A DNA stretch of 64,000 nucleotides from Escherichia coli (GCF_002854065.1 NZ_CP024147.1); one strand, 5' to 3'. Positions 74-47,363 are shown, counted from the first letter of the stretch. Notes: generated by a model from the letters alone, not told the origin. Translations and numbers: made by a program.

Positions 74-695
74 ATGACAAAAATGAGTCGCTACGCCTTG
101 ATTACTGCGCTGGCGATGTTTCTCGCCGGGTGTGTGGGGCAACGTGAACCTGCACCGGTAGAAGAAGTGAAACCAGCGCCGGAACAACCAGCCGAGCCAC
201 AACAGCCTGTCCCCACAGTGCCCTCGGTGCCGACGATCCCTCAGCAGCCAGGCCCAATTGAGCACGAAGATCAAACTGCACCGCCTGCGCCGCATATTCG
301 CCATTATGACTGGAATGGCGCAATGCAGCCGATGGTCAGTAAGATGCTTGGGGCTGACGGGGTGACTGCGGGTAGCGTCCTTCTGGTTGATAGCGTTAAC
401 AACCGTACTAACGGTTCGCTGAATGCCGCAGAAGCGACCGAAACGCTGCGAAATGCGCTGGCTAATAACGGTAAATTTACCCTGGTTTCCGCCCAGCAGC
501 TGTCGATGTCTAAGCAACAGTTAGGTTTGTCGCCGCAGGACAGTTTAGGTACCCGTAGTAAAGCCATAGGCATTGCCCGCAATGTCGGCGCTCATTACGT
601 GCTGTACTCCAGCGCCTCTGGCAACGTTAACGCTCCGACCCTACAAATGCAGCTGATGCTGGTGCAGACGGGCGAAATTATCTGGTCAGGTAAAG

Positions 696-715
<20 letters not shown>
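74..715 (+). CDS. lpoB: LpoB, outer-membrane lipoprotein activator of PBP1B
   Basis: ORF with lipoprotein signal (lipobox LAGC) followed by Pro/Gln-rich linker; matches recalled E. coli YcfM/LpoB; position upstream of thiK-nagZ. Confidence 0.88.
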
Positions 716-2556
<1,841 letters not shown>

Positions 2557-2578
2557 CCCTGGCTTATGTGAGGAAGCG

Positions 2579-3121
2579 ATGATTATCTATTTACACGGTT
2601 TTGACTCTAACAGTCCGGGTAACCACGAGAAAGTCTTACAATTGCAGTTTATTGACCCGGATGTACGCTTGATAAGCTACAGTACGCGGCATCCGAAACA
2701 TGATATGCAGCATCTGCTTAAAGAAGTGGACAAAATGTTGCAACTGAACGTTGACGAGCGTCCGCTAATTTGCGGCGTTGGCCTGGGCGGATACTGGGCT
2801 GAACGGATTGGTTTTCTTTGCGACATCCGCCAGGTGATCTTCAACCCTAATTTGTTCCCTTATGAGAACATGGAAGGCAAGATTGATCGCCCGGAAGAGT
2901 ATGCCGATATTGCCACTAAGTGTGTGACCAACTTCCGTGAGAAGAATCGCGATCGTTGCCTGGTGATTTTGTCGCGTAATGATGAAGCGCTTAACAGCCA
3001 GCGGACATCTGAAGAGTTGCATCATTATTACGAGATTGTCTGGGACGAAGAGCAGACGCACAAATTCAAGAATATCTCCCCGCATTTACAGCGCATTAAA
3101 GCGTTCAAAACCCTCGGGTAA
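2579..3121 (+). CDS. ycfP: UPF0227 family esterase-like protein YcfP
   Basis: 180-aa ORF from internal ATG ([11 protein letters not shown]...), alpha/beta-hydrolase-like HGF motif. Confidence 0.85.
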
Positions 3122-3129
3122 ATGCCCTC

Positions 3130-3260
3130 GTCGCATCAGGTAACCTTGCCGGTACCTGATGCGCTCCGAATTCTGTAAGTCGGATAAGGCGTTTACGCCG
3201 CATCCGACAGTCGAGCATCAATGCCTGATGCGCCTCTTATCAGGCCTACCGAACGCCCTG
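3130..3260. repeat. REP/BIME-type palindromic repeat cluster
   Basis: Tandem imperfect palindromes of the gcctgatgcgc...gcatccg type characteristic of E. coli REP elements, in ycfP-ndh intergenic region. Confidence 0.6.
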
Positions 3261-3521
3261 CATACACCCCTCACTCTATATCACTCTCACAAATTCGCTC
3301 AAATAATAAACAATAAACTCTGTTTTTTGATCTCACCCGGTAAAGTCGCCTATCTTTTCAGCAACAAAACTTGATTAACATCAATTTTGGTATGACCAAT
3401 GCACCATTCATGTTATTCTCAATAGCGAAGAACATTTTTCATTGCTGTAACCTGTTGTTAATTAAGAGCTATGTTAATAACCATTAATTAACAATTGGTT
3501 AATAAATTTAAGGGGGTCACG

Positions 3522-16974: not shown

Positions 16975-17796
16975 ATGCTGTCGCGTCGGGGTCATCGGTT
17001 AAGTCGTTTTCGTAAAAATAAACGCCGCCTGCGCGAGCGTTTGCGTCAGCGTATTTTTTTCAGAGATAAAGTGGTGCCGGAAGCAATGGAAAAACCAAGA
17101 GTACTCGTACTGACAGGGGCAGGAATTTCTGCGGAATCAGGTATTCGTACCTTTCGCGCTGCAGATGGCCTGTGGGAAGAACATCGGGTTGAAGATGTGG
17201 CAACGCCGGAAGGTTTCGATCGCGATCCTGAACTGGTGCAAGCGTTTTATAACGCCCGTCGTCGACAGCTGCAGCAGCCAGAAATTCAGCCTAACGCCGC
17301 GCATCTTGCGCTGGCTAAACTGCAAGATGCTCTCGGCGATCGCTTTTTGCTGGTGACGCAGAATATAGACAACCTGCATGAACGCGCAGGTAATACCAAT
17401 GTCATTCATATGCATGGGGAACTGCTGAAAGTTCGTTGTTCACAAAGTGGTCAGGTTCTCGACTGGACCGGAGACGTTACCCCAGAAGATAAATGCCATT
17501 GCTGCCAGTTCCCGGCACCCTTGCGCCCGCACGTAGTGTGGTTTGGCGAAATGCCACTCGGCATGGATGAAATTTATATGGCGTTGTCGATGGCCGATAT
17601 TTTCATTGCCATTGGTACTTCGGGGCATGTTTATCCGGCGGCTGGGTTTGTTCACGAAGCGAAACTGCATGGCGCGCACACCGTGGAACTGAATCTTGAA
17701 CCGAGTCAGGTTGGTAATGAATTTGCCGAGAAATATTACGGCCCGGCAAGCCAGGTGGTGCCAGAATTTGTTGAAAAGTTGCTGAAGGGATTATAA
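16975..17796 (+). CDS. cobB: NAD-dependent protein deacylase (sirtuin) CobB
   Basis: Sir2 motifs [10 protein letters not shown], zinc-binding CxxC...CC, catalytic region HMHGEL. Confidence 0.9.
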
Positions 17797-17932: not shown

Positions 17933-18718
17933 TTACCGTTTACTCGTCAATAACAACGCGGCAATAAACGTACAGACACCAATCAGCCCTGCCCAGAGTG
18001 GCGATATTCTGGTAATCGCAAAGCTATTATCGATATACAGGCATAAAGCCTGATAGCCCATATTGGCAATAGTCATCGCCACTGCAAATTTTAATGCATA
18101 ATTAAGGCGCGTCGTGTAGTTAAAAAATGCAGTAAAGACGATAAATGCAACCGCCCAGGCAAAAAGGCCTAATGTCGTGGTGCTGCCGGGAGGATCATTC
18201 TCCTGCTGTTGTCCGGGATGCGGATAATATGTCAGTGGCGGCGTCGGTTGTTTTAATATCTGTGCTTGTAAAACAGCCAATGCATTATTGATTCCCTGAT
18301 ACCAGAGATCCGCATGTAAATAAGCCAGCGTGTGATTTTCTACCAGAAGGCCGAGATGCTTATCGTCCATGCTGCTTTCAACATGGCCGTTGGTTATCAT
18401 AATTAACCGTGGCTCGCGTGTAGTAAAAAGTAACAGAACACTTCCTTTTACATCACTCAATGAAGATGACGCATGCGCCAGCATCGCTTTGCCATTTTGC
18501 CTGAAGCTTGCTTCATTAACGCCAGGTACAACCACGATAAACGGCGCAATCCCTGTTTGTTGACGAAAAAGCTCCGCTTTCCGCGCAATCTCCTCAGCAT
18601 CCGGTACAGTACCTGTAACATCCGTAAAAAGTGTCTTCATTATTGGGATTAAGGGCTTACTGGTTACCGTCAGAGGCAGAAGTATCAGTAAACTGAGCAG
18701 TATTGTGATTTTTTTCAT
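17933..18718 (-). CDS. ycfZ: inner membrane protein YcfZ
   Basis: 261-aa ORF with signal/TM N-terminus; synteny ymfA-ycfZ. Confidence 0.8.
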
Positions 18719-19176
18719 GGACGGGACTTCCGTTTCCTGCGTGATTTTTTAGAGGAGGGCATACTGATTAATAAACCGACGGCGATAAAAATAACGCCCA
18801 TAATGCCGATAAACCCCCATTTAAAAAAATTAACCCACGGGTTATTTATCTCAGCCTTTTCAGGATGCCCGGGAGAATAATAAACATTAACTTTATCACC
18901 TTCGCTGTCTTCATAAAAATCGCTGCCAATACTCGAATTGAAAATTAGCGTGTAATCTGGCGTCGGTCGAAAGGCAACGACGGGATACCACGAACCATTT
19001 TTACCCGTGCGATGAGAATGACTGGAGTGCAAGACGGTATCAACAATGACGCCTTCGGTATGAATCGCGTCTTTGCTATAGGTGAACTAGTTATAAAAGA
19101 TAACAACAGAAATGAGGATCAGTAACAGACCGATACCGAAGAATATACGAAAGAAAACTTTACTGTCCTGACTCAT
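18715..19176 (-). pseudogene. ymfA: ymfA interrupted by in-frame TAG (codon 30 of a 153-codon frame)
   Basis: Continuous frame from ATG (rc of 19174-19176; [29 protein letters not shown]) is broken by TAG (rc of plus 19087-19089) then continues [25 protein letters not shown]... to stop at 18715; total length equals the 153-aa YmfA I recall. Confidence 0.7.
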
Positions 19177-19196
19177 TAGTCACATCCTTGCTAACT

Positions 19197-19223
19197 AAAA
19201 AACGGGCGGTAATACCACCGCCC
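19197..19223 (-). terminator. rho-independent terminator downstream of potD
   Basis: gggcggtaataccaccgccc hairpin followed on the minus strand by a T-run. Confidence 0.6.
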
Positions 19224-19233
19224 GCTTGCTGAA

Positions 19234-20280
19234 TTAACGTCCTGCTTTCAGCTTCTGATAATACTCTTCATAAATGCTGCTGGCTGCGCCAACGTCATTC
19301 TGCCATTCGCCATTTTTAATGGTTTCAGCATCCGGGTAGAGCGTCTTATCGTTCGCCACTTCTGGACTTAACAGCTTACGCGCCGCAAGGTTTGGCGTTG
19401 GATAACCGATAGTTTCAGCAACCTGTTTTGCCACATCCGGGCGCAGCAGGAAGTTGATCAATTTCAGCGCGCCTTCTTTGTTTTTGGCATTTGCCGGGAT
19501 CGCCAGGCTGTCCATCCAGAATATGCCGCCTTCTTTCGGCCACACCACGTCAATAGGCGTACCCGCCTGGCGTGCAACGAAAGCAGAACCGTTCCAGATC
19601 ATGCCGAGGTTAACTTCGCCTTCCATGTACGGGTTAGCCGGGTTATCGGAGTTAAACGCTGCGACGTTTGGCATCAGTTTTTTCAGCTCGTTATATGCAG
19701 CTTCAATCTCTTTCGGATCGGTGGTGTTACCGGAGTAGCCCAGCTTACGCAGCGCCATCTGGAACACTTCACGGGCATCGTCGGTCAACAGCAGGCTGCC
19801 TTTGTACTCTGGCTTCCACAGATCGGCCCAGCTGGTGACAGATTTTGGATCCACCGCATCACCGTTAACACCAATCGCCGTCGCACCCCAGATATACGGA
19901 ATGGAGTAATCGTTATTCGGGTCAAACGGCTTATTGAGCATGTCTGGATCGAGATTGCTGAAGTTCGTTAACTTCGACTTGTCGATCTTCTGGATCATCC
20001 CTTCTTTACGCATTTTATCGACGTAATAGGTTGAAGGAACCACCAGGTCATAGGCACCGTCTTTGTACGTTTTCAGCTTGGCATACATGGTTTCGTTCGA
20101 CTCGTAAGTCGAATAGATAACCTTAATACCGGTTTCTTTGGTGAACTGTTCAAGCAGTCCTGGCGGCACGTACTCGGTCCAGTTGTAGAAATACAGCGTG
20201 TTGTTGTCATCGGCGTGAGCGGCGCTCATGCCCAGTGCCAGAGCACCCGCCGCGAGCAGGTGGCGTGACCATTTTTTCAT
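19234..20280 (-). CDS. potD: spermidine/putrescine ABC transporter periplasmic binding protein
   Basis: 348-aa product with signal peptide; final gene of the potABCD operon. Confidence 0.95.
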   Translation of the reverse strand: MKKWSRHLLAAGALALGMSAAHADDNNTLYFYNWTEYVPPGLLEQFTKETGIKVIYSTYESNETMYAKLKTYKDGAYDLVVPSTYYVDKMRKEGMIQKIDKSKLTNFSNLDPDMLNKPFDPNNDYSIPYIWGATAIGVNGDAVDPKSVTSWADLWKPEYKGSLLLTDDAREVFQMALRKLGYSGNTTDPKEIEAAYNELKKLMPNVAAFNSDNPANPYMEGEVNLGMIWNGSAFVARQAGTPIDVVWPKEGGIFWMDSLAIPANAKNKEGALKLINFLLRPDVAKQVAETIGYPTPNLAARKLLSPEVANDKTLYPDAETIKNGEWQNDVGAASSIYEEYYQKLKAGR

Positions 20281-39547: not shown

Positions 39548-39784
39548 ATGCATCAAAATTCAGTGACTTTAGATTCTGCGGGAGCAATCACTCGTTACTT
39601 TGCAAAAGCTAACTTGCCTACTCAGCAGGAAACTCTCGGGGAAATTGTGACTGAGATTTTGAAAGATGGACGTAATCTGAGTCGAAAGTCGCTTTGTGCC
39701 AAACTTCTTTGCCGACTGGAACAAGCGACAGGGGAAGAGGAACAGAAACATTATAATGCACTAATTGGGTTGCTTTTTGAATAA
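39548..39784 (+). CDS. ycgZ: small protein YcgZ (connector of two-component signalling)
   Basis: 78-aa ORF with good RBS, divergent from bluF. Confidence 0.85.
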   Translation: MHQNSVTLDSAGAITRYFAKANLPTQQETLGEIVTEILKDGRNLSRKSLCAKLLCRLEQATGEEEQKHYNALIGLLFE

Positions 39785-39813
39785 TGCAACAGCCTGATTA
39801 TTTGGATTTGCCC

Positions 39814-40719
39814 CTATATTTCCAGACATCTGTTATCACTTAACCCATTACAAGCCCGCTGCCGCAGATATTCCCGTGGCGAGCGATAACCCAGCGCACT
39901 ATGCGGATGCCATTCGTTATAATGCTCGAACGCCTCTGCAAGGTTCTTTGCTGCCGTTAACCCGTCTGGTTTGGGCATGATACTGATGTAGTCACGCTTT
40001 ATCGTTTTCACGAAGCTCTCTGCTATTCCGTTACTCTCCGGACTCCGCACCGCCGTGTTCTTCGGTTCAAGTCCCAACATCCGGGCGAACTGGCGTGTTT
40101 CATTAGCCCGGTAGCATGAACCATTATCCGTCAGCCACTCCACTGGAGACGACGGAAGATCGTTGCCGAAGCGGCGTTCCACCGCTCCCAGCATGACGTC
40201 CTGTACTGTTTCACTGTTGAAGCCGCCGGTAGTGACCGCCCAGTGCAGTGCCTCACGATCACAGCAGTCCAGCGCGAACGTGACACGCAGTCTCTCTCCG
40301 TTATCACAGCAGAACTCGAACCCGTCAGAGCACCATCGCTGATTGCTTTCTTTCACGGCCACTCTGCCTGTATGTGCCCGTTTCGATGGCGGTACAGCAG
40401 GTTTTCGCTCAAGCAACAGCGCATTCTAGCGCATGATCCGGTAAACACGTTTGGCATTGATCGCAGGCATACCATCAAGTTCTGCCTGTCTGCGAAGCAG
40501 CGCCCATACCCGACGATAACCATACGTGGGCAGCTCTCCGATAACATGGTGTATACGGAGAAGCACATCCGTATCATCAGTGTGACGACTGCGGCGGCCA
40601 TCCATCCAGTCATCGGTTCGTCTGAGAATGACGTGCAACTGCGCACGCGACACCCGGAGACAACGGCTGACTAAGCTTACTCCCCATCCCCGGGCAATAA
40701 GGGCGCGTGCGCTATCCAC
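39814..40719 (-). pseudogene. insD: IS2 transposase OrfB (InsD) interrupted by in-frame TAG at codon 98
   Basis: Frame [12 protein letters not shown]...AKRVYRIMR / TAG (rc of plus 40426-40428) / [20 protein letters not shown]...; canonical IS2 has Gln at this position as I recall. Confidence 0.75.
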
Positions 40720-41042
40720 TTTTTTGCCCGTCCATATTCAACGGCTTCTTTGAGGAGTTCATTTTCCATCGTTTTCTTGCCGAGCAGGCGCTGGAGTTCT
40801 TTAATCTGCTTCATGGCGGCAGCAAGTTCAGAGGCAGGAACAACCTGTTCTCCGGCGGCGACAGCAGTAAGACTTCCTTCCTGGTATTGCTTACGCCAGA
40901 GAAATAACTGGCTGGCTGCTACACCATGTTGCCGGGCAACGAGGGAGACCGTCATCCCCGGTTCAAAGCTCTGCTGAACAATTGCGATCTTTTCCTGTGT
41001 GGTACGCCGTCTGCGTTTCTCCGGCCCTAAGACATCAATCAT
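40677..41042 (-). CDS. insC: IS2 transposase OrfA (InsC)
   Basis: 121-aa product [34 protein letters not shown]... Confidence 0.9.
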
Positions 41043-41162
41043 CTGTTCTCCAATGACTAGTCTAAAAACTAGTATTAAGACTATCACTTATTTAAGTGAT
41101 ATTGGTTGTCTGGAGATTCAGGGGGCCAGTCTATTATTTAACAGGTTAGCTATGAAGTCGTT

Positions 41163-41435
41163 ATGAAGACATCTGATAATGAAAGTATAAAATATGAAAT
41201 TACTGGCCAGGCGGTGCTCCAGATACTGCGCATGAAGATAAATTTTTCGGTGCAGACTCTTATTAAGCAATTACTCGTAATGAAATCGGCTGAGGAAAAT
41301 GCTTTCCGACGAGATTTAATTGACAGCATAATTCGTGATTTTAGCAACAGTGATACAGGAGGGCCAAACCGAAGAACAGCGATAGCTGACAATAAAAGTA
41401 TGTTCAATGGTAAGAAAATAAACAGAATACATTAA
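41163..41435 (+). CDS. ymgA: small protein YmgA (connector/biofilm-related)
   Basis: 90-aa ORF, first gene after the IS2. Confidence 0.82.
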   Translation: MKTSDNESIKYEITGQAVLQILRMKINFSVQTLIKQLLVMKSAEENAFRRDLIDSIIRDFSNSDTGGPNRRTAIADNKSMFNGKKINRIH

Positions 41436-44699: not shown

Positions 44700-47363
44700 A
44701 TGAAACTGAAAAAACTCCCCGGGTTTAGTTTAGGACTTATTGCTCTGGCGGTGGGTAATGCATATGCAACACAATTGTTGGATGATTATAGTATAATTTC
44801 CTATATAACCGATGAAGAATCGCCGATTCAAATCAAAGATAATACTTTGAAAAGTAATGAAGAATATCTAACCACTGAAGACGAAAGCCATGCTGTGAAA
44901 GTGGATGACGGTGTAACTGGATATATAAATAATGCCAGTGTGATGACTAGTGGTGATGGATCTTATGGTATTTCTGTTGATAGTCAAAACAAAGTATTAT
45001 ATATAAGCGATAGCGATATTAAGACCTCTGGAAGCGTATCTAACAAAGAAAATAACCAAGATGTTAATGGAGGGATAACAGCCAGCGCAGTAGTCAGTGA
45101 ATTTGGTGGCACCATCGTTATGAATGGTGATAATTTAGTCGAGACGGGGGGGGCATATTCAGCGGGACTTTTAAGTCAGGTTAATGATTCTGGAAATGTG
45201 GAAAATAACACTCGTCTTGAAACCACAGATAAAACGATCATTGTTACCTCTGGGGAAAATGCAGTAGGTGTTCTTGCATGTTCAAGACCTGGAGAGTCTC
45301 GAACATGTGTCGATGCTGTAGATGATGAAGTTAGTGATTCTAACAGTTACGAAGTTATTAGCCGTGCTGATTTAAAAATGAATGGTGGTTCCATAACAAC
45401 TAATGGCATTAATAGCTATGGTGCTTATGCTAATGGGAAAAAAGCATATATTAATTTAGATTATGTGGCACTTGAAACTGTGGCTGATGGAAGTTATGCA
45501 GTTGCTATTCGACAAGGTAACATTGATATAAAAAATAGTTCTATTACAACAACAGGCACTAAAGCCCCCATTGCAAAAATATACAATGGTGGAGAGTTAT
45601 TTTTTTCCAATGTCACCGCGGTATCAGTAAAAGATAAAGGAATATCAATTGATGCATCAAATATCGATTCTCATGCCAAAATAGCACTATCAAGTGTTGA
45701 ACTTTCAAGTGCTTTGGATAGTATTGATGTTAACAAAACTACAACGAATTTAAGCATCCTTAATCGAAGTATTATCACGCCTGGTAATAATATTCTGGTT
45801 AATAATACTGGGGGTGACTTAAACATAATTTCGTCCAACTCTACTCTAAATGGAGCGACTAAACTCGTTAGCGGCACAACCACGCTGAAGCTTTCAGAAA
45901 ACACAATCTGGAATATGAAAGATGACTCCGTTGTTACCCATCTGACTAATTCAGACAGTATTATCAATCTTTCGTATGATGATGGTCAAACATTTACCCA
46001 GGGAAAAACGTTAACCGTAAAAGGTAATTATGTCGGTAATAATGGTCAGCTTAATATCCGCACTGTATTAGGTGATGATAAATCAGCTACGGATAGACTT
46101 ATTGTGGAGGGTAATACTTCGGGTTCAACTACCGTCTATGTGAAAAATGCTGGAGGAAGCGGCGCGGCCACGCTAAATGGGATCGAACTCATAACTGTGA
46201 ATGGCGATGAATCTCCAGCAGATGCCTTCAGACAAGGTGATGCAAGGATTGCAGCTGGAGCTTTCGAATATCAACTAAAACAACAAGGCAAAAACTGGTA
46301 TTTGACAAGTTATCAGTCAGTGAATGAGGAGGATAACAGCTCAGAGGGAAATTCAGAATCAACAGAAACGCCCACCCCCGTCCTGCGCCCCGAAGCTGGA
46401 AGTTACGTCGCCAACCTGGCAGCCGCTAACACTCTTTTTGTTATGCGTCTGAATGACCGTGCAGGTGAAACGCGCTACATCGATCCTGTAACTGAACAGG
46501 AGCGTTCAAGCCGACTTTGGCTACGTCAAATTGGCGGGCATAATGCCTGGCGTGACAGCAACGGACAGTTGAGAACGACCTCGCATCGCTACGTCTCGCA
46601 GTTAGGGGCCGATCTGTTAACCGGTGGTTTTACCGACAGTGACAGTTGGCGTTTGGGAGTGATGGCTGGTTATGCCCGCGACTACAACTCAACTCATTCC
46701 AGCGTGTCGGATTATCGTTCGAAAGGGAGTGTCAGAGGCTATAGCGCAGGGCTGTATGCCACCTGGTTTGCCGATGACATCAGTAAAAAAGGCGCATACA
46801 TTGACGCCTGGGCGCAATATAGCTGGTTTAAAAACTCGGTGAAAGGGGATGAATTAGCCTATGAATCCTATAGCGCGAAAGGCGCAACCGTCTCGCTGGA
46901 AGCGGGTTACGGCTTTGCCCTGAATAAATCCTTTGGTCTGGAAGCGGCGAAATATACGTGGATCTTCCAGCCACAGGCACAGGCTATCTGGATGGGCGTC
47001 GATCATAATGCGCACACCGAAGCCAATGGCTCACGTATTGAGAATGACGCAAATAACAACATCCAGACCCGACTTGGTTTCCGCACTTTTATTCGTACTC
47101 AGGAGAAAAACAGCGGTCCGCACGGTGACGACTTTGAACCTTTTGTTGAAATGAACTGGATCCATAACAGTAAAGATTTTGCTGTCTCAATGAACGGCGT
47201 GAAAGTCGAACAAGACGGGGCGCGTAATTTGGGGGAAATTAAACTTGGCGTAAATGGCAATCTGAATCCGGCGGCCAGCGTCTGGGGTAATGTGGGCGTG
47301 CAGCTGGGTGATAATGGCTACAATGACACCGCAGTGATGGTGGGCCTGAAATATAAGTTCTGA
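44700..47363 (+). CDS. ycgH: autotransporter (type Va) adhesin-like protein YcgH, full-length ORF
   Basis: 887-aa ORF: signal peptide MKLKKLPGFSLGLIALAVGNAYA, Ser/Thr/Gly/Asn-rich passenger, C-terminal beta-barrel ending ...VGLKYKF. Confidence 0.85.
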   Translation: MKLKKLPGFSLGLIALAVGNAYATQLLDDYSIISYITDEESPIQIKDNTLKSNEEYLTTEDESHAVKVDDGVTGYINNASVMTSGDGSYGISVDSQNKVLYISDSDIKTSGSVSNKENNQDVNGGITASAVVSEFGGTIVMNGDNLVETGGAYSAGLLSQVNDSGNVENNTRLETTDKTIIVTSGENAVGVLACSRPGESRTCVDAVDDEVSDSNSYEVISRADLKMNGGSITTNGINSYGAYANGKKAYINLDYVALETVADGSYAVAIRQGNIDIKNSSITTTGTKAPIAKIYNGGELFFSNVTAVSVKDKGISIDASNIDSHAKIALSSVELSSALDSIDVNKTTTNLSILNRSIITPGNNILVNNTGGDLNIISSNSTLNGATKLVSGTTTLKLSENTIWNMKDDSVVTHLTNSDSIINLSYDDGQTFTQGKTLTVKGNYVGNNGQLNIRTVLGDDKSATDRLIVEGNTSGSTTVYVKNAGGSGAATLNGIELITVNGDESPADAFRQGDARIAAGAFEYQLKQQGKNWYLTSYQSVNEEDNSSEGNSESTETPTPVLRPEAGSYVANLAAANTLFVMRLNDRAGETRYIDPVTEQERSSRLWLRQIGGHNAWRDSNGQLRTTSHRYVSQLGADLLTGGFTDSDSWRLGVMAGYARDYNSTHSSVSDYRSKGSVRGYSAGLYATWFADDISKKGAYIDAWAQYSWFKNSVKGDELAYESYSAKGATVSLEAGYGFALNKSFGLEAAKYTWIFQPQAQAIWMGVDHNAHTEANGSRIENDANNNIQTRLGFRTFIRTQEKNSGPHGDDFEPFVEMNWIHNSKDFAVSMNGVKVEQDGARNLGEIKLGVNGNLNPAASVWGNVGVQLGDNGYNDTAVMVGLKYKF

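Follow-up and report, generated by a model that had tools for sequence, protein, structure and literature searches.

The adjacent Escherichia coli genes ymfA and ycfZ appear in the searchable literature in lists only, and a function has been assigned to neither of them. Both genes were included in the list of an ASKA over-expression screen (PMC10299036) and counted among the membrane-protein genes that differ between strain groups of unlike susceptibility to amoeba grazing (PMC10304320); ycfZ occurs once among the mutations of phage-resistant APEC17 mutants (PMC12057083). Additionally, ymfA is found in indole/SdiA and MNNG expression tables (PMC1899176, PMC6505713), which indicates that it is transcribed in K-12. 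A full-text literature search for DUF3592, the Pfam domain of YmfA, returned three papers, with passing mentions only. Homologs of YmfA are confined to Escherichia (75% identity in E. albertii) and a small number of Klebsiella-like sequences (~50%), and an alignment of such homologs has 51 invariant columns.

In K-12 MG1655, ymfA (b1122), annotated as a "putative inner membrane protein", is a gene of 153 codons that overlaps the start of ycfZ in an ATGA motif. The locus described here lies in a 64-kb stretch of an E. coli genome (64,000 nucleotides of NZ_CP024147.1), referred to below as the window. Its ymfA has the same number of codons, the same position and orientation, and the same overlap with ycfZ, and the gene order cobB/ycfZ/ymfA/potD/potC is that of K-12. 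In K-12 and in strains 100416 and CUWW06, as in the window, ymfA is found on the same strand and has potD on one side and ycfZ/cobB on the other. The two alleles differ at codon 30, which is CAG in K-12 and TAG in the window. This nonsense allele is already known: the identical TAG is flagged in RefSeq as a pseudogene in CUWW06 (NZ_CP182139.1), a genome from Thai wastewater, where ymfA is annotated by PGAP as ACNHKQ_RS09820, a pseudogene with an "internal stop". In this work, we describe the lesion, its distribution and order of appearance, and its predicted effects on ymfA and ycfZ.

The ymfA Frame and Its Amber Codon

The ymfA frame, which carries the DUF3592 domain, occupies positions 18715..19176 on the minus strand and consists of 153 codons, with a TAG inside, followed by a terminal TGA. 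The nonsense codon is codon 30 (19087..19089, minus strand; cta on the plus strand), and the next base is T. Conceptual translation of 18715-19176 on the minus strand ends in SRRKRKSRP* and contains this single internal stop. The product aligns colinearly with the 153-aa K-12 MG1655 YmfA from end to end, and apart from the stop 148 of 153 residues are identical, the five amino-acid differences being F13L, L18V, I26V, L49W and N60D. Two pieces of the frame appear in the ORF list, both on the minus strand: a 29-codon ORF from the ATG, which holds most of transmembrane helix 1 only (19090..19176, or 19087..19176 with the stop), and a downstream fragment of 105 aa that begins at an in-frame TTG, codon 49 (18715..19032). 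An earlier note made from the sequence alone had described a TAG at codon 30 of a 153-codon ymfA frame and a 105-aa fragment with a non-ATG start; the translation and the ORF list bear out the former, and the ORF at 18715..19032 is the latter.

Codon 30 is CAG (Gln) in K-12 MG1655 and in the closest intact alleles, those of strains 100416 and 88-3493. Because K-12 and the nearest intact alleles carry CAG, the lesion is a C>T transition of the coding strand, CAG>TAG, which corresponds to G>A at position 19089 of the plus strand. Chance is not at issue, since the lesion is one defined base difference from a gene that other strains carry intact. The earlier note had given AAG (Lys) as the codon of K-12, which is actually CAG (Gln). 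The class II ymfA allele of strain SE11, described below, has CAT (His) at this codon, and Gln or His occupies position 30 in 12 of 12 aligned full-length YmfA homologs. Since sister and outgroup alleles have a sense codon there, the stop is derived. Every reference YmfA examined is 153 aa long and starts at the upstream ATG, so that a naturally 105-aa protein, the alternative named in the earlier note, was found among none of them. The suggestion of a pseudogene or strain-specific nonsense allele is upheld by these full-length references and by the derived, clade-limited stop. We conclude that ymfA in the window is very probably a nonsense pseudogene and an ordinary case of lineage-specific gene loss. 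Programmed read-through or recoding of the stop codon was considered and rejected, because the stop is not conserved and TAG is confined to one small clade.

Carriers of the Stop Codon and Their Phylogeny

The distribution of the allele was followed with Megablast, which requires an exact 28-base word, so that a 31-mer centred on the variant base matches only genomes with that base. Among 5,426 complete E. coli genomes, the TAG 31-mer was found in one (CUWW06) and the CAG 31-mer in 1,465. CUWW06 carries the identical CAG>TAG change in a ymfA that is one synonymous base apart from that of the window, and the flanking 24 kb are ~100% identical. It has gone beyond the state of the window in having an IS1 in ycfZ, the ycfZ substitution V213M and two more IS insertions nearby. 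Over a 701-bp region CUWW06 is also the closest complete genome, with 1 mismatch, and none matches at 100%. An exact look-up of the 105-aa fragment retrieved the draft genome GCA_000713815.1 (contig JOSR01000041.1) and two gut-metagenome contigs (ERZ943753/ERR1449740 and ERZ28625313), and the sequence TATAACTAGTTCACC is present in the draft and in both contigs. GCA_000713815.1 differs from the window at 3 of 6,318 bp. The other TAG carriers differ from the window at 17160, 18082 or 18651, and a window-private synonymous SNP in ymfA (GGC>GGT, position 18898, minus strand) separates the window strain from them. Because each pair is set apart at other sites, the five TAG sequences are not copies of each other. 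The TAG may be used to mark a small E. coli clade cleanly, with members in Thai wastewater, human-gut metagenomes and a draft genome.

Strain 100416, obtained from human stool in The Gambia and carrying CAG, differs from the window at 8 sites over ~36 kb, and CUWW06 differs from the window at 10 sites over ~37.7 kb, in addition to its three IS insertions. In the three-way comparison over ~36 kb, three sites (5840, 7338 and 19089, the last being the TAG) group the window and CUWW06 against 100416, and five SNPs occur in the window alone and three in CUWW06 alone. The TAG appears to have arisen once, in the ancestor of a small clade with an intact sister lineage (100416), because the three shared sites unite the window and CUWW06 against that strain. 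The window-private SNPs (509 G>T, 6032 C>T, 10084 C>T, 17160 C>T and 18898 G>A) each replace the plus-strand base by T or A (n = 5), and those at 17160 (in cobB) and 18898 (in ymfA) are synonymous.

Several further changes affect ycfZ within the TAG clade. V213M (plus-strand 18082 C>T) is common to GCA_000713815.1 and CUWW06. The IS1 lies in ycfZ codons 93-96, with a target duplication at 18433-18441, and occurs with an identical junction in CUWW06 and in metagenome contig L008. The corresponding regions are L006:18343-19111 in CUWW06 and L008:729-852 in the gut metagenome (ERR1449740). As this junction is common to a Thai wastewater genome and a gut contig, a doubly hit sub-lineage circulates in gut communities. 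Metagenome contig L009 carries the substitution L23S. None of the three ycfZ changes in the TAG clade is synonymous, each of them altering an amino acid or disrupting the gene. The nested distribution indicates an order of decay in which the TAG would have come first, followed by ycfZ V213M and then by the IS1 in ycfZ. In the proposed mechanism, ymfA would have been broken first, and ycfZ would then have gained V213M, L23S and IS1 within the TAG clade. With three events only, these changes fit relaxed constraint on ycfZ after the break in ymfA. The clade may thus represent a small natural case of stepwise operon decay, in which the first gene suffers a nonsense mutation and its coupled partner then acquires missense changes and an IS1. 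Commonly quoted clock rates for E. coli are about 2e-7 to 1e-6 per site per year. Since divergence inside the TAG clade is ~2.7e-4 per site, these rates imply, as a rough estimate, that the age of the allele is a matter of centuries and not of years.

The comparison with these strains also revealed differences elsewhere in the window. An IS2 at 39802-41133 is located in the spacer between the intact small genes ycgZ (39548-39784) and ymgA (41163-41435), where it may affect expression of the downstream genes ymgA-ariR-ymgC. It is 99.9% identical to the IS2 of CUWW06, which occupies another site. The locus retrieved from the otherwise near-identical strain 100416 lacks the segment 35978-46151 (~10 kb); there, the sequence from iraM to a truncated ycgH contains IS3 fragments and a group II intron (ltrA). 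In the window, an uninterrupted ORF of 887 aa (44700-47363) spans the part that matches ycgH.

Predicted Effect on YmfA

With Gln restored at codon 30, YmfA matches Pfam DUF3592 (PF12158) over residues 40-112, at 30.2 bits against a cutoff of 25.3. Hydropathy analysis delineates two hydrophobic segments, ~4-33 and ~114-143. An AlphaFold2 model built with 12 homologs (mean pLDDT 72) contains a helix at residues 2-35, five beta-strands between 38 and 111, and a second helix at 113-138. Together, hydropathy and model fit an architecture of transmembrane helix, beta-domain and transmembrane helix. The positive-inside rule is the established basis for calling the topology of membrane proteins, and the C-terminal tail of YmfA is strongly basic, which makes an N-in/C-in topology with a periplasmic beta-domain likely. 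A Foldseek search of the model against the PDB gave no match at E <= 0.001. Reading a function from the fold was also tried and rejected: the best candidates were a topology like that of the two-transmembrane-helix beta subunit of BK channels and weak OB-fold/SSB-like matches, which offer no basis for a claim.

On this model, the stop at codon 30 is predicted to fall within helix 1, ahead of the whole beta-domain (DUF3592, ~38-111) and of the second helix. Translation from the normal ATG would end after 29 residues, within the first transmembrane helix, and none of the DUF3592 domain lies inside the hydrophobic 29-aa product. Between the stop and codon 126, the frame offers neither an ATG nor a GTG, and its sole TTG is at codon 49, which begins 54 nt past the stop. 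The 20 nt upstream of this TTG, GCGTCATTGTTGATACCGTC, lack a Shine-Dalgarno-like sequence. The 105-aa fragment that it opens is devoid of the first transmembrane helix (TM1) and of the first ~9 residues of DUF3592, and the residues H39, G42, I44 and V45, which are invariant across homologs, are encoded between the stop and the TTG. Re-initiation at codon 49 is predicted to be unlikely, because a Shine-Dalgarno sequence, TM1 and these four invariant residues are all missing. Gene callers nevertheless report a spurious 105-aa "protein" from the TTG, which should be taken as a warning for annotation.

The amber codon could in principle be read by a suppressor tRNA, a point that the earlier note had raised with supE and supF in mind. 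No tRNA gene is present within the 64-kb window according to ARAGORN. Suppressor 31-mers were built from K-12 tRNA genes for six alleles, namely supE (glnV CUA), supF (tyrT/V CUA), supD (serU CUA), supP (leuX CUA), supB (glnU UUA) and supC (tyr UUA); trpT, lysT, tyrU and leuZ were left out. Matches were found in 158 of 5,426 complete E. coli genomes, and among the 60 matches listed all are K-12 laboratory derivatives with supE, apart from DSM 498. Without the supE segment, two of the 5,426 genomes match, DSM 498 (supD-type serU) and OV2 (supF-type tyr), and CUWW06 is not one of them. In the best 60 of the 158 matches, the classic amber and ochre suppressor alleles are thus essentially a property of laboratory strains. 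In CUWW06, the sister genome that shares the TAG, the anticodons of the four tRNA-Gln genes of the glnX-glnV-metU-glnW-glnU operon are wild-type (CTG, CTG, TTG, TTG), and none of supE, supB, supF, supC, supD and supP is present. The check for a suppressor was consequently negative in the window and, for the six alleles, in CUWW06. We infer that the allele yields no functional YmfA: a suppressor was found neither in the window nor, for the six alleles, in CUWW06, and the sole restart, the TTG at codon 49, is without a ribosome-binding site and without TM1. Low-level natural read-through of the UAG at codon 30 may occur.

ycfZ and Transcription of the Locus

The ycfZ gene of the window (17933..18718, minus strand) is intact and encodes a protein of 261 aa, identical to that of strain 100416, with a TPM domain (PF04536, residues 41-151, 27.4 bits against a cutoff of 22.1). 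In the ORF map, the pair is flanked by cobB on the plus strand (16975-17796) and by potD (19234-20280) and then potC on the minus strand. The TGA of ymfA and the ATG of ycfZ share the ATGA overlap at 18715..18718 (minus strand). Stop/start overlaps of this type are typical of translationally coupled genes. The Shine-Dalgarno sequence of ycfZ itself is weak (GGAAG, 8 nt upstream). That of ymfA is AAGGA (19185..19189, minus strand), located 8 nt before the ATG at 19176-19174. Directly upstream of it lies the strong terminator-like hairpin of potD (19200..19227, minus strand), which resembles an intrinsic terminator: its stem has 12 pairs, of which 7 are GC, and a T-run comes after it. A promoter scan gave 3 sites against 4.2 expected by shuffling and thus no sign of a dedicated ymfA promoter.

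In the window, ribosomes that initiate at the ymfA start would stop 372 nt before the end of the gene. As the ycfZ start codon is embedded in the end of ymfA, through the ATGA overlap, it would then not be reached by ribosomes translating ymfA. Expression of ycfZ is probably reduced in the TAG background, through lost translational coupling and possibly through Rho-dependent polarity over the 372 untranslated nucleotides. The first ~80 nt past the stop in ymfA are C-rich and G-poor (29% against 18%), whereas the remainder is not; such a stretch is compatible with Rho loading and suggestive of it. Some translation of ycfZ from its own weak GGAAG may persist.

Allele Classes and Losses across E. 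coli

A search for the ymfA ORF in the 5,426 complete genomes distinguished two classes. Class I, with an identity to the window of 95% or more, comprises ~3,371 genomes, and class II, ~78% identical and represented by SE11, comprises ~1,472; ~579 of the 5,426 have no ymfA match. Between the window (18715-19176) and SE11 (L016:2501-2962), dS is ~0.88 and dN ~0.16. Because the resulting dN/dS between classes is ~0.18, ymfA appears to be under purifying selection where it is kept. The genes on either side of this deep dimorphism, potD and cobB, are conserved. The sequences suggest that the two classes reflect an ancient polymorphism or an imported allele. They are as diverged as genes of E. coli and Salmonella, which, with the frequent loss, may hint at the role of the DUF3592/TPM pair.

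Losses of one or both genes take several forms. In the O157:H7 strain TR01, ymfA and ycfZ are cleanly deleted between potD and cobB, with the first 44 nt of ymfA left (L017:3944-4097). In SE11, ycfZ is a frameshifted pseudogene (L016:2959-3743) and ymfA is intact, which is the reverse of the window. The protein database holds a YmfA frameshift form of 135 aa that reads NFLNGG... (P0014, 201 members), another frameshift form (P0028, 53 members), junction truncations of YmfA (P0019 with 160 members, P0035 with 85 members, and P0034), and a ymfA-ycfZ fusion of 196 aa (P0025, 13 members). A run of seven T in ymfA (18823-18829) is an apparent frameshift hotspot, and P0014 reads as expected from the loss of one T. 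Some of the aberrant forms may be assembly artefacts, although several come from large contigs. The ymfA-ycfZ pair appears to be dispensable, because lineages have deleted or broken it independently and because ycfZ decays in the TAG clade.

Alternative Explanations

It is very likely that the TAG is a loss-of-function allele of ymfA produced by one C>T change in the common ancestor of a small natural clade. In the proposed history, the Gln30 codon CAG would have mutated to TAG once, and the clade would comprise the window strain, CUWW06, GCA_000713815.1 and two gut-metagenome populations. The alternative that the TAG is an artefact of sequencing or assembly, hiding a true sense codon, has in its favor that no complete genome is 100% identical over the 701-bp region and could serve as a cross-check of the source assembly. 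The identical TAG and its context recur in CUWW06, GCA_000713815.1 and the two metagenome contigs, all of which differ from the window elsewhere, and site 19089 is consistent with the local SNP phylogeny. As the TAG recurs in four other independent sequences, we regard an assembly error as excluded, and the chance of any such error is practically negligible. Suppression of the codon, which would keep ymfA functional, has in its favor that a supE-type tRNA-Gln(CUA) would restore exactly the Gln30 lost by CAG>TAG and that suppressor alleles do exist in complete genomes (158 of 5,426). Nevertheless, the carriers among the matches listed are K-12 laboratory derivatives and DSM 498, with DSM 498 and OV2 alone when supE is set aside; CUWW06 reads the same TAG with wild-type tRNA-Gln anticodons and none of the six alleles; the window is free of tRNA genes; and decay of the downstream gene ycfZ is under way within the TAG clade. 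Poole, Brown and Tate are also said to have found, in 1995, that TAG followed by T is a comparatively efficient terminator, which likewise counts against suppression. We consider it extremely improbable. Very improbable, too, is a split gene in which the 29-aa TM1 peptide and a re-initiated 105-aa product, jointly or each by itself, keep the function. An in-frame TTG does open the 105-aa frame 54 nt past the stop, and a survey of gene remodelling in E. coli lists the YmfA family as having fission-like variants (PMC8788219). The restart, however, has no Shine-Dalgarno sequence in the 20 nt before it, and no in-frame ATG or GTG precedes codon 126. Its product would contain neither TM1 nor the domain's first strand region, so that the beta-domain could presumably not reach the periplasmic side, and the four invariant residues H39, G42, I44 and V45 would be lost in the gap.

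A different question is whether the null allele was fixed not by neutral decay but since loss of ymfA-ycfZ is advantageous, for example in escape from phage, toxin or predator. The many independent inactivations of the pair by unlike mechanisms would agree with this, as would the ycfZ mutation in phage-resistant APEC17 mutants (PMC12057083), the presence of both genes in the amoeba-grazing table of gene differences (PMC10304320), and the deep dimorphism of ymfA, which could point to unusual selection. Yet both literature links are single list entries without follow-up, and repeated loss is equally expected of a dispensable gene. The dN/dS of ~0.18 and the intact ymfA kept in most lineages also speak against it, as does the rarity of the TAG allele (1 of 5,426 complete genomes). 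Overall, adaptive loss is unlikely. A broader proposal, that ymfA-ycfZ is under conflicting selection as an envelope module that serves as a target or entry factor for phage, toxin or grazer, with two ancient classes, repeated knockout and the TAG as a selected escape, is a speculative and quite unlikely one.

Comparison with Other Losses of the Pair

Under the preferred reading of a lineage-specific loss-of-function allele, the finding itself matters little, as it adds one more pseudogene in an uncharacterised, dispensable two-gene membrane module. Similar to the other inactivations of ymfA-ycfZ, the lesion in the window abolishes one or both genes of the pair. Unlike those cases, which arose in other lineages by deletion, frameshift, insertion or fusion, the inactivation in the window is a very early point nonsense mutation.
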